The notes beneath the pieces were generated by a model. It ran no database searches, was not told the origin of the DNA, and saw nothing but the letters and a program-made list of their open reading frames with translations. From a virus, in IMG/VR virus record IMGVR_UViG_3300025691_000011: 40,812 nucleotides of DNA, one strand, 5' to 3'. Shown piece by piece: positions 14,701 through 40,812 of this stretch; positions within the stretch are counted from its first letter, which is position 1, and every line of letters starts with the position of its first letter. The position numbers and the translations under genes were made by a program.

Positions 14701-17700
14701 TTCAGATACCTTTTTCAATTCTAAATTTAATGAACTTATCTTTTCATCTACTTTCTGTTTTTCTATTTTCGATATTATACCTTTTTTATCTTTTAATAAA
14801 TCAGATTTCATTTGCAACTCCTCTATTTCCTTTTTTATTCTATCTACTGTACCACTATTTTGTTGCTCTACTTTTGGTTGTTCCTCTTGTGATGTTTTTG
14901 GTTGTTCCGCTTTTTGTTTTTCTGTTGGCTCTGCATTTCCTCCTCCCAATCCATTATCGTTTGGTTTGCTTTCTTGAACTCCCTCGCTGTCATTTTGTTT
15001 TTCCCCTGTGTTAGCAGGTTTAGTTGATGTAATTTCATTATTATCTGTTTTTATCGTTTTATCTTGTTCTGATTTATCTTCGCTTGTAATATTTATTATT
15101 TTACCATTGCTTTTTATATCCTCCGCTTTATCAATAGGCACAAGCTCACCACTATCATTTGTAACATTACCATTATTATCTACTTTATAAACTTCTTTAT
15201 CATGTAATATAACATCGCCTTTATGTGTGTTTGTTATAGAACTTGCAAGTTTATCTATCTCACCTTTAAATGCATCGTAAAAGTCTTTTTCCTCTCCTGA
15301 TAATTTTATACCTCTTACATTTTTATTTGCAATATCAACCTTTGTTTTTGTTAATGTTCCCGAACCCTCTTTTGCAGTTGCAGTTCCAATGGTAGTATTT
15401 TGTTGTTCTTTACTTTTAGCATCCGAAAATACATCATTTACGACTTTATCTTGTTCATTATTTACTACATTTACTTCCTGTGTTAAGTCATTTTGTACAT
15501 TCTCAAAAATATCCTTATTTCTGCCTTTCATTTTTGACTTAACATAGTTTATCCATTCGGTAGCAAGTGTAGCTTTTTTTTCATTTTCACCGTGACCTTT
15601 AGTAAATAATGTAAAGTATGTCCCTAATGATAAATAATTTAATGCCTTTACTAAATCCTCATCCAAATCACCGTATTTCTCTTTTACGCCTTTTATAAAT
15701 TCTTCTGAATTTCCGCTATGCTGATACTGTTCGGCTAATTCATTAAACTCCATTTTTACACCCTCTGATAATGTCCTACCCGTAATACCGGAAATAGTTT
15801 TAGTTAGCAAGTTTGGTTTTATGCCTGTCAATGCAGATAATCCTTTTTCTAATGGGTTTGCAAGATACCCACCGACCCCAAAAGTTACACCCGTTTTAAA
15901 TCCCTCTCCAAAATGCTGTTCCCCTCTTAATCTATTATTAGCTTGGTTTAATGCTTCCATACTAATCCCCTCTTTTGCTAATGCATCAACTTTCGGGAAT
16001 ACCTTACTTATTGGCGTATATATCTTACTAAGTAATGGTTGTTCTTTAATTACATAATCTACTGTCTTAGCTACTTTAGTTACTGCCTTTGCTAATTCTG
16101 TGCCTTTCATTATATTGCCAGCACTTGCTAAAATTGGTGATGTAATTAATGATGTAGCCGCTAATTCAGTTACAAACTCTGCCGTTTCCCCTATCGTTGC
16201 TCCTACTTTTTCAGATAACTGCCCTTTGTCTTTCCCTAATGTTCTTGTTTGTAATATTTCTTCTTGTGTTTTATCTTTTGGTGATATACCAGCCTCCTGC
16301 ATTACCCCTTGTGCCTTTATAGCATCTTCTTGTGATGTATTATGCTGTGTGGTTTGCGAAACTCCATCGGCAAACTTTAATACTGCTGTTTTTAAAAAAC
16401 CATCTGTATTGTTATTACTTTTATTTATAGCAACGTATGTAGATATTGCATCTAACTCACCCTCTAAGTTTTTTATTTTCTTTGTTACACCATCGTCATA
16501 ATGTGGTATTCTTTGCGCTATTGATTGACCTACTTTATCAATAATACCAGTACCGGCTTTCTTTTTTAATTCATTTAATTGCGTGTATTTTACACCGTAC
16601 AATACTCTTAATTTATCTAAATCAGACATATTGCTCTTAATCACTCCGCTATTTTCTAATTCCGAAACATCAGAAATTATATTTTGCTTATGTTCGTCAA
16701 TAACTGATTTATCATTCAATACATCTTCTTTCTTAGCCTTTAATGTAGTGATGTTATTCTTTAATAATTGCTTATCATTATCGGTTAGCGGTACTTCTTT
16801 TGTTAAGTTAGAATTTATTGGAAAACCAAATTGAGAAAGTGACGGATTATCTTCTGTTACAGTCTTAACCCCTGATGCTAATTGTTTTTGCATCTTTTCA
16901 ATATCAGCATCAATATCAGCATTTCTTTTTATATATAACTTGTCGTTTTTTGTTTGTAATTCTGATAATTCTGTTTGATATTGTTTAGATAGTTCCGTAT
17001 TGCCATAGTTATTAGCTGCTGTAACCCATTTTTTTAAATTATCAATTTTAGTATTAATATCATATATATGTTTATCGGTGTCGCTTAATCTACTTTTAAT
17101 ATCATCTTCGGTTAATATTTTAGCATAATCAACTTGGTCTTTTTCGGTATCTCCTGCTGTTGCATCGAGTGCGTTCTTTTTAAATAAAATATCTGCCCCT
17201 TTAAATGTAGTATTGTCTTCTTTTTTGTTTTTATTGATAGGCTCAATCGTTGGTTCGATTTGTTTTTCAGGAACTTTTGTTTTATTATCAGTAGCAATAT
17301 TTTTCGCTTTTTGTATAATATCATTCACTCCCGATACATCATTATATCCGTTCCCTTTTTGTTTAGTTCCAATAATTTGAACATTATTTTTATTTGGTGC
17401 ATTGTCTTTTTTATCTTGTTCAAATGCTTGTTCAAATGCTTTTGTATTACCCTTAACACCAACAGAACTAAATGTATTATTCGATTGCTGTGTAGGTTTC
17501 GCTATTGATTGTGGTGTTTGAACCGTAGGTGACGTGGATTGTACATTTGAAGTAGATACGGATTGGGAAGTATTTGTTGTAGATTTTTGTTGCTGTTCTT
17601 GCGAACCAACTTGTGTATTTATTTTTTTTTTTGATATTAACTCTTTAAACTGGTCAGGAGTTCTATCAAAGCCATCTACATTATCTTTTAATACACTATA

Positions 17701-17823
17701 TACTTTATCGGAATAGCTACTTGATTTCATTAACTCTCTAAATTGTTCAGGAGTTCTATCAAAGCCATCCATATTATCTTTTAATACACTGTATATCTTA
17801 TCTAAATATTCTTGTTCTGCCAT
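8776..17823 (-). CDS. Giant putative ejection (internal virion) polyvalent protein with zincin-like metallopeptidase domain (3015 aa)
   Basis: Follows two small ejection-type genes; mostly helical/coiled-coil; HEHTH (HExxH) at 13015-13029 preceded by DGTVYGAVLPDGSMYLNP. Confidence 0.7.
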   Translation of the reverse strand: MAEQEYLDKIYSVLKDNMDGFDRTPEQFRELMKSSSYSDKVYSVLKDNVDGFDRTPDQFKELISKKKINTQVGSQEQQQKSTTNTSQSVSTSNVQSTSPTVQTPQSIAKPTQQSNNTFSSVGVKGNTKAFEQAFEQDKKDNAPNKNNVQIIGTKQKGNGYNDVSGVNDIIQKAKNIATDNKTKVPEKQIEPTIEPINKNKKEDNTTFKGADILFKKNALDATAGDTEKDQVDYAKILTEDDIKSRLSDTDKHIYDINTKIDNLKKWVTAANNYGNTELSKQYQTELSELQTKNDKLYIKRNADIDADIEKMQKQLASGVKTVTEDNPSLSQFGFPINSNLTKEVPLTDNDKQLLKNNITTLKAKKEDVLNDKSVIDEHKQNIISDVSELENSGVIKSNMSDLDKLRVLYGVKYTQLNELKKKAGTGIIDKVGQSIAQRIPHYDDGVTKKIKNLEGELDAISTYVAINKSNNNTDGFLKTAVLKFADGVSQTTQHNTSQEDAIKAQGVMQEAGISPKDKTQEEILQTRTLGKDKGQLSEKVGATIGETAEFVTELAATSLITSPILASAGNIMKGTELAKAVTKVAKTVDYVIKEQPLLSKIYTPISKVFPKVDALAKEGISMEALNQANNRLRGEQHFGEGFKTGVTFGVGGYLANPLEKGLSALTGIKPNLLTKTISGITGRTLSEGVKMEFNELAEQYQHSGNSEEFIKGVKEKYGDLDEDLVKALNYLSLGTYFTLFTKGHGENEKKATLATEWINYVKSKMKGRNKDIFENVQNDLTQEVNVVNNEQDKVVNDVFSDAKSKEQQNTTIGTATAKEGSGTLTKTKVDIANKNVRGIKLSGEEKDFYDAFKGEIDKLASSITNTHKGDVILHDKEVYKVDNNGNVTNDSGELVPIDKAEDIKSNGKIINITSEDKSEQDKTIKTDNNEITSTKPANTGEKQNDSEGVQESKPNDNGLGGGNAEPTEKQKAEQPKTSQEEQPKVEQQNSGTVDRIKKEIEELQMKSDLLKDKKGIISKIEKQKVDEKISSLNLELKKVSEQPKIEPHTIEQPKVEQPKVSEQPKVEPISVEQSKVEPIKVSEQQQTKQPKVGILDIVNNKVEYNGDKGNIVVDNENNVIFKGDKKDIELGKTTDDDFVKKDISELGVKIKTEPKITVDNNTVQVDNEKQELVSINHDKDGNVISYTYKNEKGEERTNRDADIALDIAIKKNNQSFDESRENAKETDKRQDEAHVKTEVKTEYGDSIGYILETMPDEVFDTMDLMDKGIMLEPKSIQDMVLRTLDAINNARKKIKNSNSNDLEKDKAIEKLNNFENDLNKYYEKLNKQSEVYDKDATNTETTKNDTKPNREEDKSKKGNDIRFQILGEKGAETWKSETDFEPITEAQSKTLLDRLNKAFGGAVRVFSDWNKFKKIAKELGLSDKDVEGVRFSFAEPYYSRQEVYEAFDTITNLLENKEESVKTIAETLFRNLTKNKDSRVGLTSKYYWTGKKINGRDIVIRVSNHEHRLSNVEEDTYLISVVVGKESGIDINETYAEFGLKDSYANLDDNLFEIVERIREIQDDIQFMQYPDGTVYGAVLPDGSMYLNPKKINANSHIHEHTHLFNQVIQKTNPKLWAKMVDAVKNTALWNEVKNDPNYANLKTDNQIADEVYSRLTGKKGAVNWRERIAKADSKSMLGKVREVLKEYWNNVKQLLGADIYKGMSADDFADMTLDKLFSGKEIKGARESIDSNNPQHGQPLFMAVGDGVENEKNKDIIDDIKFALDNGYSESDIRKIYSNENNGGVSKAKFDMLFDYAKNGNTSEKTKEIFNDDNPIGTKKSINNELYDALGLKPIDLPGGTPMKDAFINGKKLVESGLKNPLEIVERILSKKDNPSEVYVNEQDENVMLYYRQQLHEQGKGLARAVVDLEKKVKDNPQDIDAKMELMTTKALQLTNLDNLESALMASQVAGRAGSRFFNARQVAVDSQGIVALNIKRIKIIYGNDMPKDLEQELTKLQAEYDTLSEKNAKIQEEYESLKKEKEKTQAQKIVEDINTKVNTDSKANNKGSFRKKADALADKFEKLFSSIVFKDDNGNDIDVIQNGIISSKDIIKGISDLIRITGSVADAVDTFFANNDKTISFSQKAINAIKEHILSNFNKDNKLSISRLSVKDAIRENNLKNIDEVVLHFNEKYPEKSEREIRDAITGYGVSKEPNSEDADIRKMIRLGRIKSALEDIKNNKRPMRSGMQRDKIEADERALQKELKRLIDDMPKTDADINKQLKSSQDAIETRLNNEIEELDRLINGGKRVETKKGGNVEYTDDIKNLITIRDAKKQQLADIEGIDRTNNLLITIKDKAESLGLKTISKEIVKSKLIDDLVKSQLQDGVNVNDVIDNTFDKLKTLLPELTKSELHNAILKKGDYVGDKKTKTALQQQLAELKRQGSLQKQIEDIQNGIAKETKVRGEQSETVKALQQQLAELKRQGRNKYASLSTAEIKKQIRTLETRLNKGEFANPKTKDRVFEDNQDWISNNTKLTALKNKIQMHTKEAMESKKSSYMRTLDYINRWARRAIFWYNFGVYIKLNAAAASTFIHRIPSQLIATGYKKIFPHIGNLSPEAQFDIKAEAKFYLEGFNLKKLAINSWSIATKGTTELSKEHEMYIDKNPEFAKNFKNSNGIIGKTLSIPKTLLTAEHIPILDLLAAGGHILIKDPVKRATFEATFEYYLKFYKSKGLDINNPLTLESARQEAYKAAKYEIFLDNGRAVAKFDKILSDKKREAINDYQNAKNGYDVFKANAKYTIGALKDFFVPVNTVPNNIVRRFSLPIKLPFVLAEAYKTNKSIRDGISTLSTEQANHIFRDLKNGSIGSAYWSLGFYLGMKGLAGGLYTAFLKDKDRDKKIAKHDELIVGDTHVSHAVQHAWQLEDLQMGAEFAIVYHHFSNDKDGSEYAKIANGVTHGVIASSGSALQQLPMVQTASDMHKATQSEYGYKKFKNNLVRRVGYVKALQLLKTMGLSDKADEYEKKDKPKEYKGF
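10421..10584. repeat. Perfect 41-nt direct repeat inside the giant gene (copies 10421-10461 and 10544-10584)
   Basis: CTCCCTTGTCTTTTCAGTTCTGCCAACTGCTGTTGCAACGC occurs twice, 123 nt apart, encoding ALQQQLAELKRQG. Confidence 0.95.
14555..14715 (-). repeat. Low-complexity EQPK(V) repeat linker
   Basis: KVSEQPKIEPHTIEQPKVEQPKVSEQPKVEPISVEQSKVEPIKVSEQQQTKQPKV in the giant protein. Confidence 0.85.
17635..17808 (-). repeat. N-terminal 31-aa tandem repeat of the giant protein (2 copies)
   Basis: DKIYSVLKDNMDGFDRTPEQFRELM and DKVYSVLKDNVDGFDRTPDQFKELI. Confidence 0.9.
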
Positions 17824-19961: not shown

Positions 19962-20654
19962 TTGGTAATACTTTTAAATAATATGAGTAATATGAAGACA
20001 AAAAAAGGAAGAGGAGGTGTATCATATAGTTATCTTGAACGTGATAGAAACCTAACAACATCATTTAATGAGTATTCAGATGAGGAGTTAATACAACTTA
20101 GGACTTTAATGTATAATATCGGAGGAGCTGGCGTTGTAGCTTATGAATTATATAAACTTGATAATAAATTACTTGATAATACCCGAACAATAGTAGAATT
20201 TAATACCGTATCAGTTAATAATTCAAATAATATAAAGATATTAACAAGAGAGGAGATAAATAATTTGATATACAAGGATAATAATACAAAAATAAAGATA
20301 CTTCATACACACGTAAAAGAGGTATCAACAAGGGTTAGGTATGAGAAAAGTCCATTATTAAAACATTCGTATGTTAAAAAAGTTCATATATCATTAAATC
20401 CAAAAAAGACCAATAAAGATACAATTAAGGTAATTAGAATAATCAACCGGCTTGCAAATACTTTAAGTACAAGCAAGGAAAGAAACTCAATAATAGTATC
20501 AAATTTATTAACTCCAAAGAAAAACGAGAAAATAACAAAGGTTCAAGAGAAAGAAGTTGAAATAATTAAAAAAACAAAAGAAATAGTTAATGAGGTAGAA
20601 AAGGAAATAGTTAATGAGGTAAAAAAAATAGACTTTTTATCAGATTTTTTTTAA
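19962..20654 (+). CDS. Hypothetical protein, antisense to the structural operon (up to 230 aa; true start may be ATG near 19983-19993)
   Basis: Only long ORF in this gap; possible -7 element TAAATTTG at 19957-19964; C-terminal repeat KEIVNEV x2. Confidence 0.65.
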   Translation: MVILLNNMSNMKTKKGRGGVSYSYLERDRNLTTSFNEYSDEELIQLRTLMYNIGGAGVVAYELYKLDNKLLDNTRTIVEFNTVSVNNSNNIKILTREEINNLIYKDNNTKIKILHTHVKEVSTRVRYEKSPLLKHSYVKKVHISLNPKKTNKDTIKVIRIINRLANTLSTSKERNSIIVSNLLTPKKNEKITKVQEKEVEIIKKTKEIVNEVEKEIVNEVKKIDFLSDFF

Positions 20655-23600
20655 AAATTACTTCTTCCCTTATACTCACCATATATATTTACGGCATATA
20701 GTATAGTTTCCTTATCGCTATCATTTTCTAAATGCAATAATAATACCTCCCCAATAAGTGGTAATCCTAATATTAAAGGATTTTGAATATTAGGAGTATT
20801 AATATCAAACATAAAAGGTGCATAAAAAACTCCTTGTTTGCGTACAATCATATTACTCGGTGTTCTGCTTTTTATTTCCCTAAATGCTCTTGGATTTATT
20901 ACTTCTACATTCGGATTTAACCATTTGTCGGTGGCTTCAACACTCCAATTAGTAAAGTTCTTAGTTTCACTATTAGCAATATTCATTACAACCAATACCT
21001 CACTTTTATATTTCTTACCAAAGAAATTACCGAATGAGTTATTATCTCCACTTTCCAATAGATGTAGTTCGGCATTATTAAAACCTATTATCCTACTCGA
21101 TAATGAACTAAATACATTAGGAACACAATCTCTATTACCTACCCATGCTTTATTTTCGTCATCATAAACATAAGAAAAACTATTTATACTAATATCAAAA
21201 TTGAATTTATCAAATATTTTAAATTTATTATCTAATATTCCAATATTTGAAGTAGCATAATATGATAATATTCCATTATTTATTTCTGTATCTGTTGGTA
21301 TCCTATATAAACCGCTTAGATTATTAGCGTTGTCCCCATTCTTTATATCTACTCCATTTATGTTGACTACAATCTCTTTATTTTCATTATCATATATTCC
21401 ATTTATATTAATTATTCTATTTAATATATCTAATGGTATTATACTTAATTTTCTACTTAATTCTTTAAAGATGCTATCTACTTTTTTTGAAACTCTATAT
21501 CTTTCATCATAACCCGATATATTATTTACTCCTGATTGTGGGTAGTACTCAATTACAGCACCATTTATTGCATCATAAAAAACACAACTTGATATACATT
21601 CAAAATATGAACTTGGTGTAATGCATCCAAAACCACCTGAGAGATAATTAACATCTGATAATATAGAACTCGGAGCAGATAATGCAAAATTAGAACTATC
21701 CAATTTAACGTTTGCTTTCCCTATATATCTTGTACTGCATTTCCGCTCTTGTGCTATAAATAGAATATCTTTAAAATTAGATAGTATTGTTATTGAGCCA
21801 AAATTATTATCTCCTGTAACTTGTTGTTCCGTATCAAATCTGCGTATGTTGTTTATATTGCTATCGGTTAATATGGTATCTCCGTATCTAATGGTAGCTA
21901 AACGCCTTAATTGCTTATAATCTGAATTTATAAAATCACTCCTGCCAATATCACATACCCTATCAGAAGTAGCATCGTTACACGTATTATCTTCTACTAT
22001 TTTAACAGTAGATTTTTCTGTTATATTATTATTTTTAGTATTCTTATGATATGCATACATCTTTCTACTTCTTCGGTATGCATCGCCGGTATTTAATGTG
22101 ATTTCCTTATGCTCCCATTCCCGATTATAATTGTACGGATTTATTGCTTTTATATATTCTGATGTTTCAAAGAATTGTTTATCTTTTACTTGTTGTTTCT
22201 GTCTAAATATCTCAACTATAACCCCTTGCTTTAGTTCCCCTAATGCATCTATATTATCAATTACATAATAATTTCCTCTTTGCTCTTTTATTGCTACCTC
22301 GATAAAGTCATACATTTGCCCTTTGTTATCATATATAAACCTTAGTTTATCGCCTTTCTCGAACATCCACCCTTGCTTAGAGTTTGAATTTCTTTTTTGA
22401 TACTCAATAAAAGAAGTTCCCAAATCTAAATAAATCTCATTTGCATTATGATTATCAAAGGTAGTTTCTACTGGCTCTGCCGTAACCTCTTTTGTTGTTG
22501 GGTTAACTACTTCTGCATAATTTATAACATACTTAACATCAGAAACTATTGTATGCACATAATTCATGTAAACCTGCCCTTGTGTTCTCAATACATACAT
22601 ACTAACTGCCCAAATAGGTGGTGTAGATTTTGGCTTTATTTTCAAGGTAAAATATCCTATTGCTTTCTGTGTGTTTGTTATTGTATTGCCGTCTGTATCA
22701 GTCGTTAAATTAGGAAAATAATCATGAATATACTCCGTTGTAAATGGTAATCTAATTCTATGCTTATTCGGATTATGGATAACAGTACTTTTCCTTAATG
22801 CCCTATCCATTAATGTAACTCCAATATCGTAAGTATCACCATTTTTTAAATATAAATTTGTGGTAATATTTGAATAATCTAATAATGTTTGAATATCCCC
22901 TAAATCATATTGATTGTCATTATTGTAATTATTTTCACCTAATACTATATTAACCGCTCTCACCTCGCTTACGTTATTGCAATTAACCCCACGCATTATT
23001 AAAAGCGTATCGAGTTTATTTTCATATTCATTACTATTTGAGTACAATAATATTCCAAACTCCCCATTTATATCGGTAGTATCATATCTATTTGTGCCTA
23101 AAGCTGTAACATTTATTCCCGAAATAGGTATCCCATTAACATCGACCAACCTACCCTTAACTATTGTTCTTCTTTCTTTACTTATAATATTATCTAATAT
23201 GTTATATGGTAATATATAGTTATTTACAGCTCCTTTAGGGAAATAATTCTCACCACTTCCATTTCTATTTAAGTTTGTTTCTACGCACGTACCTGCATTT
23301 AATTGTGATAATGTACCTTTATATATTTTCCCTTGTTTATCGCCTATTACTGTAAGGTTTCCATGTGTATCGGAGTATGTAGGCATACCTATTGTATGCT
23401 TTAAGGTGGCATTTGGAAGTCTATCTTTATAGGCAAACATATAGTTTACAGTTGCTATGCTTGTATTTAAGTACCTTGTTTCGCATATTTTCCAAAAGTA
23501 CCCATTATAGTCTGTTAATGTAGAATGGTTGCGTATATCCGTTGCTACGTGTTTTCTAATATCAATACAAGTGTGTTCAATTCTTTGTCCTTTTGCTATC

Positions 23601-25636
23601 TCTGATTGTGTTGTGCTTGTGCTATCAATAACATAGCCTTGTACCAATGCGCCTTGTTCAGCACCATTTACCATTAAGTCCGAATTGCACACCGTGAATA
23701 TAGGCTCATCGGTGATTTGAACTCCATTTGCTATCGTGATAGTTGCTTCAAATAGATTTATTACTCCATTTGTTGCTAATATATTTGTGGAGGTATTTTG
23801 CCACTCTAAGCCATTGCTAATATCATAAGCATTTCCCTTTCCTAATTTATCATCACTACCAACCCAATGTGAGGCAACCCTAACGATATAAATACCGTCT
23901 TTAAGTCCCGATAATTCAAACTTCTGCTGTATTTTAGGTTTTTTTGTTTTTATTATATTTGCTAATTTATGATTATTTGTTTCGCTTGTACATGATATAA
24001 TACCTGTGTCTTTATCTATGTTGTCAATACCATACCCACTTGGTATAATCTGTTTAGTAATTGTATATTTATCTGTTCCTGCTATATACACTATGAAACC
24101 ATTATTAGACATATAATATCCGCAATTATCCGCAATTCCATTATGTAAGGACGGTTGTGGATTTTCTACATACGGAGAGAATAGAAATTTATCTGTATTT
24201 TCTTGTGTTTTAATAATAGGGATATAAAAATCCTTTAAATCAATCTCGTCTGATATTATTTGTCTTATATCAATATACCCTGTTATCTTGCCATTATAAT
24301 TTTCTATTTTTTCTCTATTATGATATTCTACATCGACATCAAAATCAAAACAATCAGTATTATAATTCTCTGTTGGAGTACCAACTATTAACCTATTATC
24401 TATTGCCGATAGTGTTTCACATACCAAAGGAATGGCATCGTATTGCTTTATTTTATCGTCATATTCTGATACTGCTGATGCTGTTATGTTATTATAAAAA
24501 TTATATACCTGTTTACCGATAGGTATATCACATTGTTTTATGTTAGCGAATGAATACAACCCACCGGTATTAGTATTTCTATAACCTAATACCACTTCCT
24601 TTACAAGATGCAGTTGTGATATATCATTAAATGCATTAAATACATAATCTGTATAATCAATTTCTACTAAATTACTTGTACTCGAACATTCATCGTAGGT
24701 ATTTATAACCTTACTCCATGCACTCCATGCACTACTATTATTATCAAAATAAACAATCTTAACCCTAAATTGCCATGAATTATCGGATAGAAAATTTGCT
24801 TTTATTTTTTTATCTTTTTTCAAAGCCACTAACGGGGCATTTGGTTGAGGATAACAAACTAAATCAATCTGTCTTTCATGGTGCTTTAAAGGATAAAAAT
24901 TAATAGGCACTATCCTTAATTTGTCTGATGTAGTATCTATAAAACAAGTATTCGGCTCTTTTTCTGTTAGCTGTATAGAACATCCGCATTTATTTATATC
25001 AAAGTAATTATTTAATATATTATTTGAACTTATAATATCTTCTGATACCCCGTTGTAAGTATTTATTATTTGTCCATTATACTTAAATGTAAATACATCG
25101 AAAGAAGTAATATCTTTTGCTATTTGTTGTATTTCAAAGATTTTATTCTTCTTATAATCGAGAGCTTTGTTTATATCTAAAAATCTTGGTGAGTTGTATC
25201 TATCTGTAAAGAATAGGTATTTATTCTGTATTATTTTAACACAAGTATTGTCAATTTTATAATATTTGTGAAAGCCTAATACTAAGTTTTTAATATCATC
25301 ATTGTATAGTAACTGTATAGGTTCTTCAAATTCAGGGTTGTATATATATACGCCATGATTATGATTGCTATTCCAATTAAAGAACACTATAAACCTTTTA
25401 TTTTCGCTTGTAATAGCACCTAAACAAACATTATCTCCTGCAAATAAATAATTATTAGAAACTAATAAAGTACCTCTGATATTTGTTATTGCCCCCTTTG
25501 TTCTATCGGTTCTTTTCCCAATTCTAACATTAGACATATATCTAACCCCTCCATTTGGAGTATCTATATACCTAACCTCATTATCGGCATCTACAAATTT
25601 TGGTTTTATCTTTTGGCTATATTTATGTTGTCCCAT
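20651..25636 (-). CDS. Tail stabilisation / muzzle-like protein (P22 gp10-like) (1661 aa)
   Basis: Large beta-rich protein following three ring-protein-sized genes; N-terminal G.ITNIRG and beta-propeller-like segments as in crAss-like tail stabilisation proteins. Confidence 0.65.
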   Translation of the reverse strand: MGQHKYSQKIKPKFVDADNEVRYIDTPNGGVRYMSNVRIGKRTDRTKGAITNIRGTLLVSNNYLFAGDNVCLGAITSENKRFIVFFNWNSNHNHGVYIYNPEFEEPIQLLYNDDIKNLVLGFHKYYKIDNTCVKIIQNKYLFFTDRYNSPRFLDINKALDYKKNKIFEIQQIAKDITSFDVFTFKYNGQIINTYNGVSEDIISSNNILNNYFDINKCGCSIQLTEKEPNTCFIDTTSDKLRIVPINFYPLKHHERQIDLVCYPQPNAPLVALKKDKKIKANFLSDNSWQFRVKIVYFDNNSSAWSAWSKVINTYDECSSTSNLVEIDYTDYVFNAFNDISQLHLVKEVVLGYRNTNTGGLYSFANIKQCDIPIGKQVYNFYNNITASAVSEYDDKIKQYDAIPLVCETLSAIDNRLIVGTPTENYNTDCFDFDVDVEYHNREKIENYNGKITGYIDIRQIISDEIDLKDFYIPIIKTQENTDKFLFSPYVENPQPSLHNGIADNCGYYMSNNGFIVYIAGTDKYTITKQIIPSGYGIDNIDKDTGIISCTSETNNHKLANIIKTKKPKIQQKFELSGLKDGIYIVRVASHWVGSDDKLGKGNAYDISNGLEWQNTSTNILATNGVINLFEATITIANGVQITDEPIFTVCNSDLMVNGAEQGALVQGYVIDSTSTTQSEIAKGQRIEHTCIDIRKHVATDIRNHSTLTDYNGYFWKICETRYLNTSIATVNYMFAYKDRLPNATLKHTIGMPTYSDTHGNLTVIGDKQGKIYKGTLSQLNAGTCVETNLNRNGSGENYFPKGAVNNYILPYNILDNIISKERRTIVKGRLVDVNGIPISGINVTALGTNRYDTTDINGEFGILLYSNSNEYENKLDTLLIMRGVNCNNVSEVRAVNIVLGENNYNNDNQYDLGDIQTLLDYSNITTNLYLKNGDTYDIGVTLMDRALRKSTVIHNPNKHRIRLPFTTEYIHDYFPNLTTDTDGNTITNTQKAIGYFTLKIKPKSTPPIWAVSMYVLRTQGQVYMNYVHTIVSDVKYVINYAEVVNPTTKEVTAEPVETTFDNHNANEIYLDLGTSFIEYQKRNSNSKQGWMFEKGDKLRFIYDNKGQMYDFIEVAIKEQRGNYYVIDNIDALGELKQGVIVEIFRQKQQVKDKQFFETSEYIKAINPYNYNREWEHKEITLNTGDAYRRSRKMYAYHKNTKNNNITEKSTVKIVEDNTCNDATSDRVCDIGRSDFINSDYKQLRRLATIRYGDTILTDSNINNIRRFDTEQQVTGDNNFGSITILSNFKDILFIAQERKCSTRYIGKANVKLDSSNFALSAPSSILSDVNYLSGGFGCITPSSYFECISSCVFYDAINGAVIEYYPQSGVNNISGYDERYRVSKKVDSIFKELSRKLSIIPLDILNRIININGIYDNENKEIVVNINGVDIKNGDNANNLSGLYRIPTDTEINNGILSYYATSNIGILDNKFKIFDKFNFDISINSFSYVYDDENKAWVGNRDCVPNVFSSLSSRIIGFNNAELHLLESGDNNSFGNFFGKKYKSEVLVVMNIANSETKNFTNWSVEATDKWLNPNVEVINPRAFREIKSRTPSNMIVRKQGVFYAPFMFDINTPNIQNPLILGLPLIGEVLLLHLENDSDKETILYAVNIYGEYKGRSNF

Positions 25637-34665: not shown

Positions 34666-35664
34666 TTATATTGTTACTTTTTTTTCTAATAATTTTCCTA
34701 CATCTACCCCCTTATAAAATCCACCATTTACCTCTTTTACTTTCTCAATATATTTATTTATATAATTCTTGTCACAAAATTGCATCACCTTGTTTATCTC
34801 ATACTTACTATACCCATTGCCTACCATATCCTCTATTAACGCATATCTTATACTACTCGAACTTATCTTATATCCTTTATACTTTTTATGGCTATTTATT
34901 AACTTGTTTATACTCACTTTCGTATTATATAAACCCGTAAGCATTAACTTATCCCTAATCCCAAATATATACCAATCCATACTAACATCGCCTACTATCT
35001 TGTTTTTTAACTTATAATACTCCCCATATTCTCCCAATAACCTCAAACTCTCATCACTTAATATTACATAAATCTCCCTGTCTTCACCCTTTGTCTTTAC
35101 TTGTACTCGTAACATCATACTACCTGCCTTGCTATTATATTGTATATCTCCCCAACGTAAACTAAATATACTCCACGTACTTAAACCAGTAGTAAATAAT
35201 AAATATATTAACAAATAACCTCGCTTGTCATCATACATACCTCTCCTCAATATACCCAATATCGTAACTATATCACTCATCCTAAATACATCACATTGTA
35301 TCTTTTTTAACTGTGGTAACCCTCGTATTCCTATTACTATATTCTTAATCCCTATATGCTCCAACTCTCGATACAAAACTCGAATACTATCAAAATAACC
35401 ATTAACAGTAGTTGACTTATATCCTTTGCTTATCAAATAATCCTTGTACCTTATTATGTCACGCTCTCCTATATCCTTTACATAATCTAATCCTATCTCT
35501 ATCATTATATACTCACTGAACTTTTTTATCCTATAAAATAACTCCTTTCGTGTGTTTTCTCGCTTACTACTACCATATATCCCTATATATTCAACTAATT
35601 CACTTACCTTAATACTCTCACTTGAATACATTTTCTTATACTCGTTTTTTATACTTATTCCCAT
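34666..35664 (-). CDS. Tyrosine-recombinase-fold protein, probably catalytically degenerate (332 aa)
   Basis: SAM-like core-binding region (YKDYL...GYKSTTVNGYFDSIRVLY) and catalytic-domain layout (RGYLLIYLLFTTGLS, LRWGDI, VKTKG, WYIF), but TGLS replaces TGLR, SSIR replaces HxxR and the box II GH is absent. Confidence 0.75.
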   Translation of the reverse strand: MGISIKNEYKKMYSSESIKVSELVEYIGIYGSSKRENTRKELFYRIKKFSEYIMIEIGLDYVKDIGERDIIRYKDYLISKGYKSTTVNGYFDSIRVLYRELEHIGIKNIVIGIRGLPQLKKIQCDVFRMSDIVTILGILRRGMYDDKRGYLLIYLLFTTGLSTWSIFSLRWGDIQYNSKAGSMMLRVQVKTKGEDREIYVILSDESLRLLGEYGEYYKLKNKIVGDVSMDWYIFGIRDKLMLTGLYNTKVSINKLINSHKKYKGYKISSSSIRYALIEDMVGNGYSKYEINKVMQFCDKNYINKYIEKVKEVNGGFYKGVDVGKLLEKKVTI

Positions 35665-36531: not shown

Positions 36532-36903
36532 CTAAAATTTATAATATCTGCCGTTGAATAACATATTAGGATTAACATAGAAAGAATTATTTTTTTTATA
36601 TATTATATTTTTATCAATAAGTTTAGTGGATACTTTTGAGAAAGTAGATTTACACATATTACAATATTTATAATTAAAATTTTCGATAATTAGTTTATTA
36701 GGTTTAATTGTAAGCATAATATATTTAATTAAAATCAATTCGTTTTTAGTTAAAGTATCGAGTATTGATATTAGTTCATAGAATACTTTAATAAATATTT
36801 GTTTATCAGATATATGAATGATATTATTTTGATTAAGAGCTGTTAGTTCATGTAGTTCACCTGTGTCAATATCAGCAACTATTTTTTTGTTAATTCGTTT
36901 CAT
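36532..36903 (-). CDS. RepL-like winged-helix replication/DNA-binding protein (123 aa)
   Basis: LTKNELILIKYIM...MCKSTFSKVSTKLIDKNIIYKK....YVNPNMLFNG resembles RepL-type wHTH proteins. Confidence 0.6.
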   Translation of the reverse strand: MKRINKKIVADIDTGELHELTALNQNNIIHISDKQIFIKVFYELISILDTLTKNELILIKYIMLTIKPNKLIIENFNYKYCNMCKSTFSKVSTKLIDKNIIYKKNNSFYVNPNMLFNGRYYKF

Positions 36904-37197
36904 TTAAAGTATAAAATAAGGTATAAATATAGAGAAAAAAATAGTTTACTCTTACTTTAAGAATAGGTTATTTACAAGTAATTGATTTTCAGTTGATTAA
37001 AATGTTAAAAGTTTCAAATTTCGGAAATTTAGTTGAAGAAATCGGAAACTTTATATTATTATATATTATTAATTTTTTTAATTAAATAATAATGTTTTTA
37101 CGTTGAATTATTTAAAATATTTTTAGATTAAGTTTTTTATTCACGCCAAGGGGTAGTTCACAATACATGGTAAAATACCAATAAACATTGATAGTTT

Positions 37198-37211
37198 GTT
37201 GCACGCTATTT
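37198..37211 (+). other. First cassette junction core site (attI-like or remnant)
   Basis: GTTGCACGCTATTT matches the reverse complement of 37889-37902 at 13/14; no long hairpin upstream. Confidence 0.55.
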
Positions 37212-37421
37212 GGCAGCGTCCCTAATGTCGCCGGTTGACAGGACAAAGTCTTTACGAATGATACAAACTTCATTTTCAAATGGTTGACTAAAATCGTATC
37301 TGTCAAGAGTGAATTTTGAAACGCCCAAATCTTTATTATCCAGGAAAATAGCAGCAAGCGAACCGTAATATTTATGTTCGCCTGTTGCCTTAATTGTTAA
37401 GTGAAATATTCTACGTTTCAT
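37206..37421 (-). CDS. Small protein, possible DNA-binding regulator (71 aa; start reassigned from 37580 to ATG 37421)
   Basis: MKRRIFHLTIKATGEHKYYGSLAAIFLDNKDLGVSKFTLDRYDFSQPFENEVCIIRK...; ATG overlaps the end of the upstream Zn-finger gene. Confidence 0.6.
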   Translation of the reverse strand: MKRRIFHLTIKATGEHKYYGSLAAIFLDNKDLGVSKFTLDRYDFSQPFENEVCIIRKDFVLSTGDIRDAAK

Positions 37422-37617
37422 AATTGCTGCATTTCCCACAAAAGGGTTTTGCGTTTTTTGTAATAGAAATATTGTTCCCGTCAACGTAATAGAATGTATG
37501 TTTAGCACAATTAATGCTGCCACACTTACTACAAGTGAATTTTTCTTTATTAAAGTATTTTTTAGCGGCTGGGATTTCACAGCCGCATTCTGCTTTTATC
37601 AATTGTCTTTCCGCCAT
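37411..37617 (-). CDS. Small Cys-rich (Zn-finger-like) protein (68 aa)
   Basis: CGC, CSKC, C, CGKC motifs. Confidence 0.65.
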   Translation of the reverse strand: MAERQLIKAECGCEIPAAKKYFNKEKFTCSKCGSINCAKHTFYYVDGNNISITKNAKPFCGKCSNYET

Positions 37618-37784
37618 GCTAACCCGTGTGTTTTTTTAATGTTCTTACCGTTTAATATTCTGCAATAAAAACCATCTGCATAAACGAAATCACCATCAAA
37701 TTTTATTTGTGTTGGTGTCTCACCTAATTCAGAGATAAAACTTGCAATTATTTTCTTTTCGAGTTTGTTGTTTAAAGTTGTCAT
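37599..37784 (-). CDS. Hypothetical protein (61 aa), first gene of the cassette 1 operon
   Basis: ORF 19 nt downstream of a consensus Bacteroidota -7 box. Confidence 0.7.
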   Translation of the reverse strand: MTTLNNKLEKKIIASFISELGETPTQIKFDGDFVYADGFYCRILNGKNIKKTHGLAWRKDN

Positions 37785-37803
37785 TTTGTTTGCTTTTGTG
37801 ATA

Positions 37804-37835
37804 CAAATATAAGGCGCTTATTTGTATTCACCAAA
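37804..37835 (-). promoter_or_regulatory. Bacteroidota primary-sigma promoter of cassette 1 with overlapping palindrome
   Basis: Minus strand TTTG (37832-37835), 20 nt, TATATTTG (37804-37811); imperfect inverted repeat ATACAAATATAAG-GCG-CTTATTTGTAT at 37801-37827. Confidence 0.8.
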
Positions 37836-37895
37836 TCTTTTTACAATTATTTTTCTCTAAATTGTAATTTTAACAAACTTTAACAAATAAACAGC

Positions 37896-38029
37896 GTGCA
37901 ACAAATGTATTGGCAAAAAAGCGGCTGACGAATAAATTCTGAACATTGGAATTTCTAATCAGCAGCAGGAAGTTATTGAGCTTGACGTTCATTGAATTCC
38001 GCTTCTTCGCCAATACGTAACCGTTAGTG
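37896..38029 (+). repeat. attC-like element 1 (134 bp)
   Basis: GTGCAAC ... GTTAGTG; arms GTATTGGCAAAAAAGCGG (37907-37924) and CCGCTTCTTCGCCAATAC (37999-38016) complementary at 16/18. Confidence 0.8.
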
Positions 38030-38041
38030 GCAAATGCTACG

Positions 38042-38209
38042 TTACTGCTTCTGTTTGACATTTTGCTTCTTTACAGCGTTATTCAAAACATTTTCCATCC
38101 ATAAGGTAAGATTGCCGCCAGTTGTTTTATTTGCTTCATTCTGCCAATTCTTAATATCTTCTGCATTGAACCGTTTCGGAAGCATTGTATCTCGTTTTTT
38201 CTTTTCCAT
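38042..38209 (-). CDS. Small putative ribbon-helix-helix-like DNA-binding protein (55 aa)
   Basis: Hand-translated: MEKKKRDTMLPKRFNAEDIKNWQNEANKTTGGNLTLWMENVLNNAVKKQNVKQKQ; strand-helix-GGNL-helix pattern. Below the ORF-track cutoff. Confidence 0.6.
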   Translation of the reverse strand: MEKKKRDTMLPKRFNAEDIKNWQNEANKTTGGNLTLWMENVLNNAVKKQNVKQKQ

Positions 38210-38211
38210 TA

Positions 38212-38469
38212 TTATTTGGTTTTAACTTCAAAAATGTATTGCCATTCTTTTTCATAAGGTGTCCAAGTATGTTTTACTAAATCGTAAACACGAACATCAT
38301 AAAGATTATCTCCTAAAGGTGTAACCATAACTTTAGTTCTGTTCGCTTTTAGTTTTTTGCCAAATAAATCTGGATTGTTCTGTTCAATAACAGCAAGTAA
38401 AATCTTTTTTACGTTTGCCCCGCTACATTTAGTTGGGCTTGTGCTGTGATATGATACTGTTGCTTTCAT
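38212..38469 (-). CDS. Hypothetical protein (85 aa; start reassigned from 38520 to ATG 38469)
   Basis: MKATVSYHSTS...; the longer annotated start lies inside the promoter. Confidence 0.7.
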   Translation of the reverse strand: MKATVSYHSTSPTKCSGANVKKILLAVIEQNNPDLFGKKLKANRTKVMVTPLGDNLYDVRVYDLVKHTWTPYEKEWQYIFEVKTK

Positions 38470-38499
38470 TTTTCTTTGTTTTAATTGATTATTGTAATG

Positions 38500-38531
38500 C
38501 AAATGTATATACAAAAACAATACAAACCAAA
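38500..38531 (-). promoter_or_regulatory. Bacteroidota promoter of cassette 2 with overlapping palindrome
   Basis: Minus strand TTTG (38528-38531), 20 nt, TACATTTG (38500-38507); perfect palindrome TGTATATACA at 38504-38513. Confidence 0.8.
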
Positions 38532-38599
38532 TTTATTTTAAACTTTTTCCAAAATATTTTATAAATGGCTGAAAATGAGTGCTAAAAATCCGCATCAGC

Positions 38600-38731
38600 C
38601 ACTAACACACGCTTGGCAAAAGTGGCGGTGCAGTACTCCGCTCGACATTTTCTGCGATATTCAACATTCGTTCTCCGCATCAGCATTCGTGGTTAAAATC
38701 GCCACCTTCGCCAAGCGTTTTGACGCTATAT
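38600..38731 (+). repeat. attC-like element 2, right core mutated (GCT instead of GTT)
   Basis: CACTAAC ... GCTATAT; arms CGCTTGGCAAAAGTGGCG (38610-38627) and CGCCACCTTCGCCAAGCG (38700-38717) complementary at 16/18. Confidence 0.75.
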
Positions 38732-38778
38732 ATTACAAAAATACTAAATGTTAAATAATGTTAAAACTAAAAAGGTTA

Positions 38779-38810
38779 TTTGCATAATTAAAATAAGTGT
38801 TGTAAGTTTG
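38779..38810 (+). promoter_or_regulatory. Bacteroidota promoter of cassette 3
   Basis: TTTG (38779-38782), 20 nt, TAAGTTTG (38803-38810). Confidence 0.8.
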
Positions 38811-38897
38811 TGCTATCAAATTAATTAATCACATCAAGTATATGAACAATGGTTATCAAAAATGAGAAAATAGTAATCACTTATAAATAATAGAAAA

Positions 38898-39341
38898 ATG
38901 GAAAATTCAAACATCATCTTCAAAAACGACAACTTGGAAATTTTTTGGCAAGTTGGAAGCACTCCAATGAATGGAGATGCAAAAGGAGTAAAAATGAACT
39001 GCAAAGCGGTAAATCCAAACGATGGAAAAGAGTATGAAAAATTCGCTGGTTGGATTGGTTTATCGCTTGCTTTGCACAATGGGGCAAAAACACCTGGTTA
39101 TATCAATGATGCAGCTTGTGATTTAATTCAAAAACACAAAGAGAAAATCTTACCTGCAATTATTGATTTTTTAGAAGCAAATGGGAAACAATATCGTGCG
39201 AAAGAATTTCGTGAAGCAAATGGAAGAAGTGCAGGTAATGGAGTTGACTTTAAAACTTCATATCCTTTCGGAGAAGGTCAAAGACAAAAAGTAAGAACAA
39301 TGATGCAGAAAAACGCACCCGAATGCACAAACCACTTGTAA
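38898..39341 (+). CDS. Hypothetical protein (147 aa)
   Basis: ORF track; downstream of the cassette 3 promoter. Confidence 0.75.
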   Translation: MENSNIIFKNDNLEIFWQVGSTPMNGDAKGVKMNCKAVNPNDGKEYEKFAGWIGLSLALHNGAKTPGYINDAACDLIQKHKEKILPAIIDFLEANGKQYRAKEFREANGRSAGNGVDFKTSYPFGEGQRQKVRTMMQKNAPECTNHL

Positions 39342-39342
39342 A

Positions 39343-39510
39343 ATGAGAAAAAACATAGACTTATCTGTTTTTAAGCAGAAAATCCACACCAAAAGATGCA
39401 GATTTTCCGATTTGAGTAACTCAAGTGAGAAACCAAGACAAGACTTCCGAAGTGTGCAATTAAGCATCAGAAGTATATTAATACAAAGATATGAAAAGTA
39501 TAACAATTAA
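39343..39510 (+). CDS. Possible small hypothetical protein (55 aa)
   Basis: Hand-translated MRKNIDLSVFKQKIHTKRCRFSDL...; starts 1 nt after the previous stop and fills the gap. Confidence 0.4.
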   Translation: MRKNIDLSVFKQKIHTKRCRFSDLSNSSEKPRQDFRSVQLSIRSILIQRYEKYNN

Positions 39511-39745
39511 TAACGTTCGATTTGTAATTCAAGCGTTTGACAAAGACAATTTCTTTAATTTAAGTCCGATTGATAACGGTGATATTCATTTTGATAAGAA
39601 ACTTGGATGTCTTCAATTCGATTTACGGCAGAAAAAAAATATCATTTTTCACACTGGTAAAGATAGTACCTATTCTTTGGATTTTATCTCAAAAATAAAC
39701 ATTCAGGAAGTGTCGTCAGAAGTTCACGCACTTTGTGAAAAATGA
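39491..39745 (+). CDS. Hypothetical protein (84 aa)
   Basis: ORF track; its TGA sits 1 nt before the left core of attC-like element 3, as in integron cassettes. Confidence 0.75.
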   Translation: MKSITINNVRFVIQAFDKDNFFNLSPIDNGDIHFDKKLGCLQFDLRQKKNIIFHTGKDSTYSLDFISKINIQEVSSEVHALCEK

Positions 39746-39746
39746 C

Positions 39747-39878
39747 GGCTAACGGCAAAGTATTGCTGTCAGGTGGGGATTAAAAGAACTACTGCCCCAT
39801 GATAGCACTAAAGTAAAATAGTAGTTCAATTGCTGAATTTGGAACGTCTGCCCCACTTGCAGCAATACGATGTTGTAG
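39747..39878 (+). repeat. attC-like element 3 (132 bp)
   Basis: GGCTAAC ... GTTGTAG; arms GTATTGCTGTCAGGTGGGG (39760-39778) and CCCCACTTGCAGCAATAC (39851-39868) pair with one unpaired base; inner stem GAACTACT/AGTAGTTC. Confidence 0.8.
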
Positions 39879-39898
39879 GCAGGCATAATTATTAAAAT

Positions 39899-40075
39899 AT
39901 GTCAAAACAAGAGTATAACAATATCTATGATGTTGTTTACAAAACAAAAAGCGGTAGAGCTATGGTTGCAAAACGAGTAGAAGCAAAAACCGCAAATGCA
40001 GCAAAGGCAAAAATAAAAAGCCAAATGCGTGCATCATCTTCGTTTGATAAAGTCGTAATGGCTATCAAACTATAA
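39899..40075 (+). CDS. Small basic hypothetical protein (58 aa), single-gene cassette
   Basis: Hand-translated MSKQEYNNIYDVVYKTKSGRAMVAKRVEAKTANAAKAKIKSQMRASSSFDKVVMAIKL; lies between elements 3 and 4. Confidence 0.7.
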   Translation: MSKQEYNNIYDVVYKTKSGRAMVAKRVEAKTANAAKAKIKSQMRASSSFDKVVMAIKL

Positions 40076-40105
40076 TTATATGGCAAGTCGGCTTTGTCGG
40101 CTTGC

Positions 40106-40240
40106 CTATAACGTTTTGCCCGCTTTGCGCAGGGCTGGAAATAGAATTACAAATATTCAAAATTTATTCAAATGCAAAATAGAAATTCAAGAGTTGAGAA
40201 TGGCACGTCTGCCAGCCTTGTGCAAAACGGCTTGTTAGGC
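40106..40240 (+). repeat. attC-like element 4 (135 bp)
   Basis: CTATAAC ... GTTAGGC; arms CCGCTTTGCGCAGGGCTGG (40120-40138) and CCAGCCTTGTGCAAAACGG (40212-40230) complementary at 16/19; shares GG(A/C)ACGTCTGCC with element 3. Confidence 0.8.
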
Positions 40241-40249
40241 GATGTTGAT

Positions 40250-40812
40250 ATGAAAGCTCTCAAATTAATGTGTTCCGATGATGAGTTACGAGAATGGATG
40301 ACAAAACCATTTTCTGTCGGTAATCAAACTTGCGCCACAAATGGCTGGTCGCTCCTGGTGGTTGACAAGAAAAGCGATTATCCTGATATGTCCGATAAAA
40401 CAAAAAGTGTCTATCCTGTTGAACTTTCATTTACAAACAAACTTGAAATTTCAAAAGTCAAAGCAGCGATTGATAAAATTCCTTTGATTGATTGTTTTGA
40501 TAAAGTTGTATCAAAATGTAATGCCTGTTATGGCGAAGGCGAAGTTGAGTATGAATTTGAACACAAAGGAAGAACCTATGAAATTGAACATGAATGCCCT
40601 GTTTGCGAAGGCGAAGGACAAACTGAACAAGTAAGCAAAATACCAAATGAAAAAAAAGAAATTGACAGTTCAAAATATGTGAAACTTGGTGTAAATCGTC
40701 TAAATATTGAAAGGGTACTTGAACTTATCAAAGTTGCAGAATTGAAAGGTGTGCATGAAGTTTTTTATCAACTTCCTGTTGAGAATAAACCTGTCGCATT
40801 CAAAATTGGTGA
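40250..40812 (+). CDS. Partial Zn-finger-containing protein, possibly sliding-clamp (DnaN)-like; runs off the right edge
   Basis: Hand-translated MKALKLMCSDDELREWMTKPFSVGNQTCATNGWSLL...CNACYGEG...CPVCEGEG...; open to the window end, 9 nt after element 4. Confidence 0.7.
   Translation, partial: MKALKLMCSDDELREWMTKPFSVGNQTCATNGWSLLVVDKKSDYPDMSDKTKSVYPVELSFTNKLEISKVKAAIDKIPLIDCFDKVVSKCNACYGEGEVEYEFEHKGRTYEIEHECPVCEGEGQTEQVSKIPNEKKEIDSSKYVKLGVNRLNIERVLELIKVAELKGVHEVFYQLPVENKPVAFKIG

Follow-up and report, generated by a model that had tools for sequence, protein, structure and literature searches.

Hairpins that are probably attC-type sites bound small-gene cassettes in two mirror-image arrays of a phage genome fragment

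Are the hairpins that separate small genes at one end of a phage genome recombination sites at which those genes enter and leave, in the manner of integron cassettes? Integrons are known mainly as bacterial gene-capture platforms, and the few reports from phages rest on two or three predicted sites. The question arises in the IMG/VR record IMGVR_UViG_3300025691_000011, a phage genome fragment of 40,812 nt (hereafter the window, meaning this whole stretch of DNA), in which genes to the right of 37.2 kb turn small and are set apart by four imperfect hairpins of ~125 nt (H1 to H4). An earlier note on this DNA had proposed that the phage acquires and shuffles accessory genes by an integron-type system, and gene turnover at the junctions, split cores, and clustered arrays support that proposal. 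We consider it probable that the hairpins serve as recombination sites of the attC type, belonging to an integron-like family specific to Bacteroidota, and that they bound mobile cassettes in two mirror arrays. Direct support comes from hairpin structure, covariation, strand specificity, a rule by which cores are split between neighboring elements, breakpoints resolved to a single base, and membership in a family that also forms chromosomal arrays. The system is integron-like and not a strict member of the integron family, because it lacks IntI, its gene polarity is reversed, and its strand choice appears to be marked by wobbles rather than by conserved extrahelical bases. Below, labels beginning with L denote related viral or metagenome contigs, and labels beginning with G denote the bacterial or phage genome records compared.

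A fold scan and a covariance model both recover the four hairpins where the earlier note had placed them. In the scan for AAC...GTT folds, H1 to H4 reach -15 to -20 kcal/mol, compared with -11.7 to -13.7 kcal/mol for the chance matches in the remaining 37 kb. The covariance model (R1) returns these four matches only in the window, even at E<=1, and each on a single strand. H1 (37889-38036 with both flanking cores; 92 bits) and H2 (38593-38738; 87 bits) fold on the minus strand and match the model there only, while H3 (39740-39885 with flanking cores; z -2.9; 111.5 bits) and H4 (40099-40247 with flanking cores; 109.7 bits) fold on the plus strand and match there only. R1 was built partly from the window's H1 to H4, which accounts for bit scores of 87-112. 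MAFFT by itself misaligned the four elements, and a generic repeat finder did not pick them up because the hairpins have bulges. The folds, the scan, and covariation reveal attC-like features, namely AAC/GTT outer cores, L-box stems, a variable loop, and a central spacer that stays unpaired. The parts follow one another in a fixed order along the folded strand: a core that ends in TAAC or CAAC, a spacer of 6 nt, the stem, the loop, and the stem again, then a 2-3-nt spacer and GTT with its core, the AAC-to-GTT distance in the window hairpins being 116-127 nt. The 5' side of H2 (minus strand) meets neighboring DNA directly at 38725|38726, and an AAC core is absent there.

The inner (L-box) stem was analyzed in an alignment (A3) of 21 long-class elements. 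It comprises 13 pairs, 11 of which show compensatory changes. Paired cells amount to 87%, against 59% in shuffles (none of 500 as high) and 41-50% when the partners are slid by 1-3 columns, and the covariation score of the stem is 0.69 versus 0.21. A G.T wobble is conserved at two stem positions, in 16 and 11 of the 21 sequences, respectively; on the opposite strand these would be A.C mismatches, and therefore only one strand folds well. The spacers (6 nt on one side, 2-3 nt on the other), the wobbles, and the strand of the model match together give the orientation of each element, and by these marks H1 and H2 point the opposite way from H3 and H4, which corrects the earlier statement that all four share one orientation. 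The loop (columns 45-100 of A3) is constrained in sequence, as different lineages repeatedly show three ACAAA[A/T]GT-like motifs and one AATAGAA motif, which may represent a binding site or a 5' leader. The start codon of the next gene sits inside the loop of some hairpins, with the right arm coding (L013:10140-10300, L014:3239-3382, and L013:10604-10763), and some intergenic regions retain only the left core and left arm, as truncated elements.

The cores obey a rule that ties each hairpin to the genes beside it: the closing core of each gene unit pairs with the core that opens the unit, not with the other core of its own hairpin. The three pairings quoted in the earlier note (13/14, 13/15, and 11/13) proved exact on re-reading. 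Among 31 elements from related phages, scored at 11 variable positions per core, 19 consecutive pairs were available. The R core of one hairpin pairs with the L core of the next at a mean of 8.1/11, and 10/11 is reached in 10 of the 19 pairs; the two cores of one hairpin pair at a mean of 4.2/11, close to the 4.1/11 of random pairs, among which 10 is reached in 2 of 910. Low-scoring consecutive pairs are mostly cases in which the scan had skipped an intervening hairpin, and the sole position that departs from Watson-Crick pairing hardly ever changes, being a T.G wobble that lies 11 nt away from AAC/GTT. From this rule the left core of the next hairpin beyond the window had been predicted as CATCGCCTAAC; in L006, a metagenome contig identical to the window that extends it rightward, the core reads TATCGCCTAAC, a match of 10/11.

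Related contigs differ from one another precisely at these cores. The comparison set consists of contigs that share an 84-aa protein with the window and come from at least eight other samples. L003 is 99.7% identical to the window up to 37198 and resumes at 38725, so that 37199-38725, containing H1 and H2 with their genes, is exactly missing; the joint reads GATAGTTTG|CTATATATT, and the joined points share one base and no hairpin homology. L003, L008, and L009 match the window through GACGGCTAAC (39753) and then continue into a different hairpin and cassette, L011 diverges from L006 at the AAC preceding a Dam methylase cassette, and L013, L015, and L026 are identical as far as the TATAAC that follows a 204-aa gene and unrelated from the next base on. 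That 204-aa gene, with a hairpin that holds a GIY-YIG gene, is common to L006, L014, and L013, where it stands behind three different upstream genes. The right array of L009 illustrates that a hairpin moves together with the genes downstream of it, as a replacement hairpin with stems like those of H1 is followed there by 75%-identical homologues of the window's 61- and 68-aa genes, on the plus strand. All breakpoints, representing five independent junctions, lie at most one base from AA|C on the folded strand, and no target-site duplications were found at the junctions. Gene turnover at the junctions among related genomes, which the earlier note had anticipated, is thus seen in L003, L008, L009, L011/L006, and L013/L015/L026. 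Its placement at G|TT holds for the left array, where AA|C on the folded strand is G|TT in plus-strand coordinates, but not for the right array, where the crossover is at AA|C on the left of the hairpin. The DNA between the two arrays also varies by plain gene insertions and deletions with no hairpins at the joints: L003 carries extra genes for 137 aa and 145 aa (L003:8504-8916 and 9384-9853), and L010 lacks 134 bp relative to window positions 39352-39485. Assemblies tend to break at hairpin arrays.

The region consists of two mirror-image cassette arrays that diverge from a non-cassette backbone (38726-39752), given that H1 and H2 belong to the minus strand, H3 and H4 to the plus strand, and the folded strand is in each case the coding strand of the neighboring genes. 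The left array begins at a putative entry, or attI-like, junction whose left side spans 37131-37198, the crossover lying between 37198 (G) and 37199; the L003 joint described above is this entry site in its empty form, on the side of the recombinase-like gene discussed below. The first left-array cassette (37199-38023, minus strand) contains H1, the core GTTGCACGCTGTTT, a TAnnTTTG-type promoter, genes for 61, 68, and 77 aa, and the closing core AAATAGCGTGCAA. The second (38024-38725, minus strand) contains H2, the core GTTAGTGGCTGATG, a promoter, genes for 85-102 aa and 55 aa, and the closing core CATTTGCCACTAA; promoters of the TAnnTTTG type are readable in the window sequence. The backbone (plus strand) opens with the right half of the empty site and comprises an AT-rich promoter region, a 147-aa gene (38898-39341), the 84-aa gene (39491-39745), and a terminal core ...GACGGCTAA. 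A partner for the core that closes this segment (GACGGCTAAC) was sought and not found. For want of such a partner, and with half of the empty site at its start, the unit 38726-39752 does not qualify as a cassette, and the earlier description of the units as cassettes stands for the other hairpin-bounded units only.

In the right array, the first cassette (39753-40111, plus strand) comprises a C, a 6-nt spacer, H3, the core GTTGTAGGCAGGC, a gene for 58 aa (39899-40075), and GCTTGCCTATAA as its closing core. The second (40112-40812, plus strand) is cut by the window end and contains H4, the core GTTAGGCGATG, and a gene for a CxxCxGxG zinc-ribbon protein that probably starts at 40250; its unit is closed in L006 by the TATCGCCTAAC core. 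Beyond the zinc-ribbon gene, L006 continues with a short hairpin, the Dam methylase cassette, whose two cores match at 14/16, the hairpin with the GIY-YIG gene in its loop, and the 204-aa gene. The GIY-YIG gene encodes a 179-aa GIY-YIG/NUMOD homing endonuclease, has its own promoter, and lies entirely within the loop of one hairpin, the arms of which are ~650 nt apart. Copies of this hairpin occur at L006:2390-3110 (to the right of the window end), L014:3701-4450, and L013:7311-8070, and the encoded protein is identical across these three phage lineages, each with a different upstream cassette.

These features suggest how a cassette could move. On the folded strand, here the coding strand, a cassette consists of a C, a 6-nt spacer, a ~20-bp stem in which the two G.T wobbles are conserved, a loop of ~70 nt, the returning arm of the stem, a spacer of 2-3 nt, and GTT with a core of ~11 nt; in some cases a promoter comes next, then one to three small genes, and last a second core of ~11 nt that is complementary to the first and ends in AA. 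Excision as a circle would join the two cores of the cassette and so extend the hairpin, and insertion would cut at AA|C (G|TT on the other strand) and split the cores again; the closing core would match the opening core of its own unit because of this splitting. By analogy with integrons, the folded single strand would be the substrate.

The hairpins form a family that extends well beyond the window. One exact L-box stem pattern, with a gap of 55-85 nt, matched at least 120 contigs each in IMG/VR and among the genomes, with match lengths tightly grouped at ~101 nt; by a rough estimate, chance would account for a few of the viral matches and a few tens of the genome matches. Among the matches listed, the genome contigs are nearly all Bacteroidota, which points to a Bacteroidota host for the window phage. 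Applied to chromosomes, R1 reveals arrays of 6-17+ co-oriented elements, with independent matches in L212, G007:C2, G006, G009, G011, and G012. The Flavobacteriales contig L212 has six elements in 8 kb, separated by unrelated non-phage genes, and the Chitinophagaceae chromosome G007:C2 has at least 17 in 20 kb. In the array of L294 (G007:C2:1445000-1464999) the same hairpin occurs in two size classes, ~146 nt and ~209 nt. The Flavobacteriales genome G009 contains 64 matches, and its contigs C21, C50, C54, C81, C82, C96, C110, C121, and C128 start exactly at a hairpin; the hairpin array is large and breaks the assembly.

Similar stem-loops could in principle arise and be exchanged in another way. 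The mobile regulatory cassettes of T4-type phages, or promoter/stem-loop cassettes (PeSLs), reportedly described by Arbiol, Comeau and Krisch in 2010, are intergenic stem-loops said to flank small accessory genes in hyperplastic regions, with shuffling via small circles proposed. Exchange of PeSLs has been attributed to homologous recombination between the promoter/stem-loop repeats. By this model the hairpins of the window, which likewise are repeated intergenic stem-loops flanking small accessory phage genes, would be conserved intergenic regulatory elements, and modules would be shuffled by phage homologous recombination between the repeats with no dedicated enzyme. The column identity of ~59% among the hairpins, which includes the loop motifs, provides homology for such exchange; phage hairpins lie on the transcribed strand, and some of their loops, as noted, hold a start codon; the recombinase-like gene of the window looks inactive, and a complete sister phage, the record of L026, has no tyrosine recombinase. 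However, the L003 deletion joins points that share a single base and no hairpin homology, the five junctions fall within one base of AAC instead of being spread over ~125 nt of homology, the split-core rule is unexpected from homologous exchange, and the same hairpin family forms chromosomal arrays beside a recombinase. Unlike those of PeSLs, the breakpoints here are thus single-base, in one case without homology, and carry a split-core signature. We regard this explanation as unlikely, although it is the best of the alternatives to attC-type sites.

If the hairpins are recombination sites, which enzyme acts on them? The window encodes a tyrosine-recombinase-like protein of 332 aa (34666-35664, minus strand) that matches Phage_integrase, XerA (37 bits), and XerD (34 bits) weakly. 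Its gene sits ~1.5 kb away from the left array and the entry junction, with intI-like polarity toward that array. The protein does not match the integron-integrase model TIGR02249. In an alignment with 15 relatives it has TGLSTWS where the relatives have TGxRxxE, placing Ser at the first catalytic Arg, and SSIRY in place of HSLRH, with no His/Trp at the third site; K190, R273, and Y305 are retained, and the IntI-type insertion is absent. Judged from these substitutions, the protein is probably unable to catalyze recombination. The statement in the earlier note that the window contains no canonical IntI is borne out, given the failed integron-integrase match, the Ser for Arg, and the SSIRY for HxLRH. 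Searches with the 332-aa protein yielded nothing among viral contigs or PDB sequences and only its own cluster in a word-based protein search, and a single-sequence AlphaFold model was unusable (predicted local distance difference test score, pLDDT, 40). A 123-aa gene (36532-36903, minus strand) separates the recombinase-like gene from the entry junction; its only matches (nSTAND_NTPase4 and DYW deaminase) are weak and below threshold.

It is quite improbable, in our estimate, that the 332-aa protein is nonetheless a working enzyme and the locus a self-contained phage integron. Its gene is intact and close to the entry junction, the polarity of that gene relative to the left array is the one intI has in a class 1 integron (the gene is encoded on the folded strand and has the array upstream of it), three catalytic residues are retained, and its relatives P0004-P0006 have the full catalytic set. 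Set against this are the replaced Arg and the Ser and Tyr at the His positions of HxxRH, the missing IntI insertion and integron-integrase match, the contigs encoding intact P0004, which are short and contain no hairpins, and the CheckV-complete sister genome (the record of L026), which has an array and no PF00589 gene. The cultured Polaribacter phage P12002L, which also carries hairpins of this family, likewise has no annotated tyrosine recombinase.

Since the phage's own recombinase-like gene looks catalytically dead and the complete sister phage has none, we infer that the recombinase is supplied in trans by the host, most likely as a host Xer/IntI-like tyrosine recombinase. In six of the ten genomes searched (G006, G007, G009, G011, G014, and G015), an Xer/IntI-like recombinase gene lies 0.2-8 kb from a hairpin, in constant geometry. 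Three array-linked chromosomal recombinases that we aligned have the full catalytic set and score near the cut-off of the 'XerA/integron integrase' model. The sole genome with an integron integrase above cut-off (G010:C13) has no family hairpins within ~30 kb of it, and in G003, the sole phage record to encode a PF00589 integrase, no hairpin adjoins that gene. The recombinase-like open reading frame (ORF) heading the G007:C2 array encodes 244 aa and is possibly truncated.

The orientation of genes relative to hairpins differs between phages and bacteria. Of 123 hairpins examined in viral contigs, 109 have most of their flanking ORFs on the folded strand and 5 have most of them on the other strand; for 123 hairpins in bacterial contigs the corresponding counts are 15 and 91. 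Gene polarity in phage arrays is therefore the reverse of that in bacterial arrays, which have the usual integron arrangement. This suggests that the conserved, strand-specific structure functions at the DNA level, since transcripts of the bacterial arrays would contain its complement, which folds poorly. The alternative, that the hairpins act mainly as RNA (as processing sites, attenuators, or translation insulators, with the cores looping the RNA of each gene and mobility being incidental), is in keeping with the viral polarity and with the fact that G.T in DNA corresponds to G.U, an ordinary RNA pair. It is nonetheless very improbable, as the wobble-bearing strand is antisense to the genes in most bacterial cases, no relevant Rfam family matches the hairpins, no T run follows their 3' side in the window sequence, and an RNA function leaves DNA breakpoints at AA|C unexplained. 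With the hairpins taken as attC-type sites, the reverse polarity may place the folded strand on the lagging-strand template in both mirror arrays, which would favor folding and turnover.

There is likewise little chance that the hairpins are repeats resembling miniature inverted-repeat transposable elements (MITEs) or repetitive extragenic palindromic (REP) sequences that inserted themselves into AAC/GTT-like targets between ordinary phage genes: many copies exist across Bacteroidota genomes and phages, in two length classes and with truncated forms, but target duplications are absent, the hairpin moves with its downstream genes, the cores match across the gene and not across the hairpin, and the copies are not dispersed, as the earlier note had allowed they might be, but form clustered, co-oriented arrays in phages and Bacteroidota chromosomes with one or a few genes per unit.

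A wider reading, which we hold tentatively and think somewhat likelier to need revision than to stand entire, is that Bacteroidota and their phages share a phylum-wide integron-like system largely missed by standard tools. This system would have its own attC family of ~125 nt (also ~85 and ~209 nt) and an Xer-like recombinase without the IntI insertion, and the phage arrays, with their reversed polarity, would be run by the host enzyme during infection.

Phage-borne attC clusters are not new as a general idea, having been published in 2023. Qi et al. (Front Microbiol; PMC9892861) reported attC clusters (clusters of attC sites lacking integron integrases, CALINs) in phages including P12002L, where HattCI called P12002L_attC1 an attC, and found IntI1 to be active on five of six tested sites. 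Using a primer in the supplement of that paper and the P12002L sequence, we identified P12002L_attC1 as a member of the present hairpin family, which P12002L carries between methylase genes and small genes; the active P12002L attC2 is a different, AT-rich sequence. The phage CALINs of PMC9892861 and the arrays described here thus have in common the hairpin architecture seen in P12002L and a cargo of DNA methylases, represented here by the Dam cassette. Unlike the present analysis, that study gives two predicted sites per phage, obtained with general attC tools, and contains no hairpin family, split-core rule, cassette turnover, or reversed gene polarity. As for CALINs generally, the window holds four sites within 2.4 kb that are attC-like by structure. 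The IntegronFinder 2.0 paper found almost nothing in complete Bacteroidetes genomes; reviews count Bacteroidetes among integron hosts. A search of the literature returned no description of the hairpin family, its recombinase, or the polarity reversal, although absence there is not proof.

Likenesses to integrons are extensive. Both integrons, including CALINs, and the arrays described here have AAC/GTT-cored imperfect palindromes with a spacer, an inner stem, and a loop, and one strand is favored for folding. The crossover point is G|TT, which is AA|C on the folded strand, and insertion divides the attC, so that the cores of a unit match; as in sedentary chromosomal integrons, an empty site exists, and a tyrosine recombinase is found next to chromosomal arrays. 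In both, sites vary little within a lineage, the Vibrio integron repeats of ~124 nt being an example. Unlike integrons, the system has no IntI with the insertion typical of that family, either in the window or beside the chromosomal arrays examined, and its strand choice appears to be marked by G.T wobbles. The phage genes lie on the folded strand downstream of their hairpin, in contrast to an ORF upstream of its attC; the left-array cassettes have promoters of their own, whereas integron cassettes are promoterless; and there are two mirror arrays, not one. Xer-family tyrosine recombinases of the host act on a folded single strand of CTX-type phages and, in Acinetobacter plasmids, on the short pdif sites that flank gene modules. 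Those sites, however, mimic the 28-bp dif, in contrast to the ~125-nt attC-like hairpins in long arrays found here.

Several observations weigh against interpreting the hairpins as attC-type sites. Cassette recombination is read from comparisons of natural variants, and the empty site reads G|CT, which is neither G|TT nor the GWT consensus published for integrase-driven insertion outside att sites. A conserved bulged (extrahelical) base of the canonical attC kind was not found in alignment A3, which has wobbles instead, and one consecutive pair (L014 3016 to 3250) breaks the core rule. Because the strand that folds in phages is also the one represented in mRNA, the hairpins may have a further role at the RNA level. 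The three aligned array-linked recombinases lack the IntI-specific insertion and score below the integron-integrase cut-off. Finally, P12002L_attC1 gave no recombinants with IntI1 x attI1 and was the sole failing site in that study (PMC9892861).

What the arrays mean depends in part on the mechanism. Cassette logic is visible here at single-base resolution in natural phage populations, and one site family connects hundreds of viral contigs with chromosomal arrays across Bacteroidota. If the mechanism is as proposed, it would explain how these phages swap small early genes, including methylases and likely anti-defense genes; it would imply a recombinase class that does the job of the integron integrase without its hallmark domain; and it would offer a tractable test of how array orientation controls cassette turnover. 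Should the folded strand of the phage arrays also serve as lagging-strand template, these arrays would remain prone to recombination and form a fast-turnover store of early and accessory genes.

Megablast against the reference phage collection returned no close relative, and a 637-aa protein gave three weak partial matches. The minus-strand structural genes encode a terminase, a portal, a virion protein, and a tail fiber with a Peptidase_S74 domain. Among the structural genes are two very long ORFs, of 3015 aa (8776-17823, minus strand) and 1661 aa (20651-25636), which by their appearance may encode giant virion or ejection proteins.

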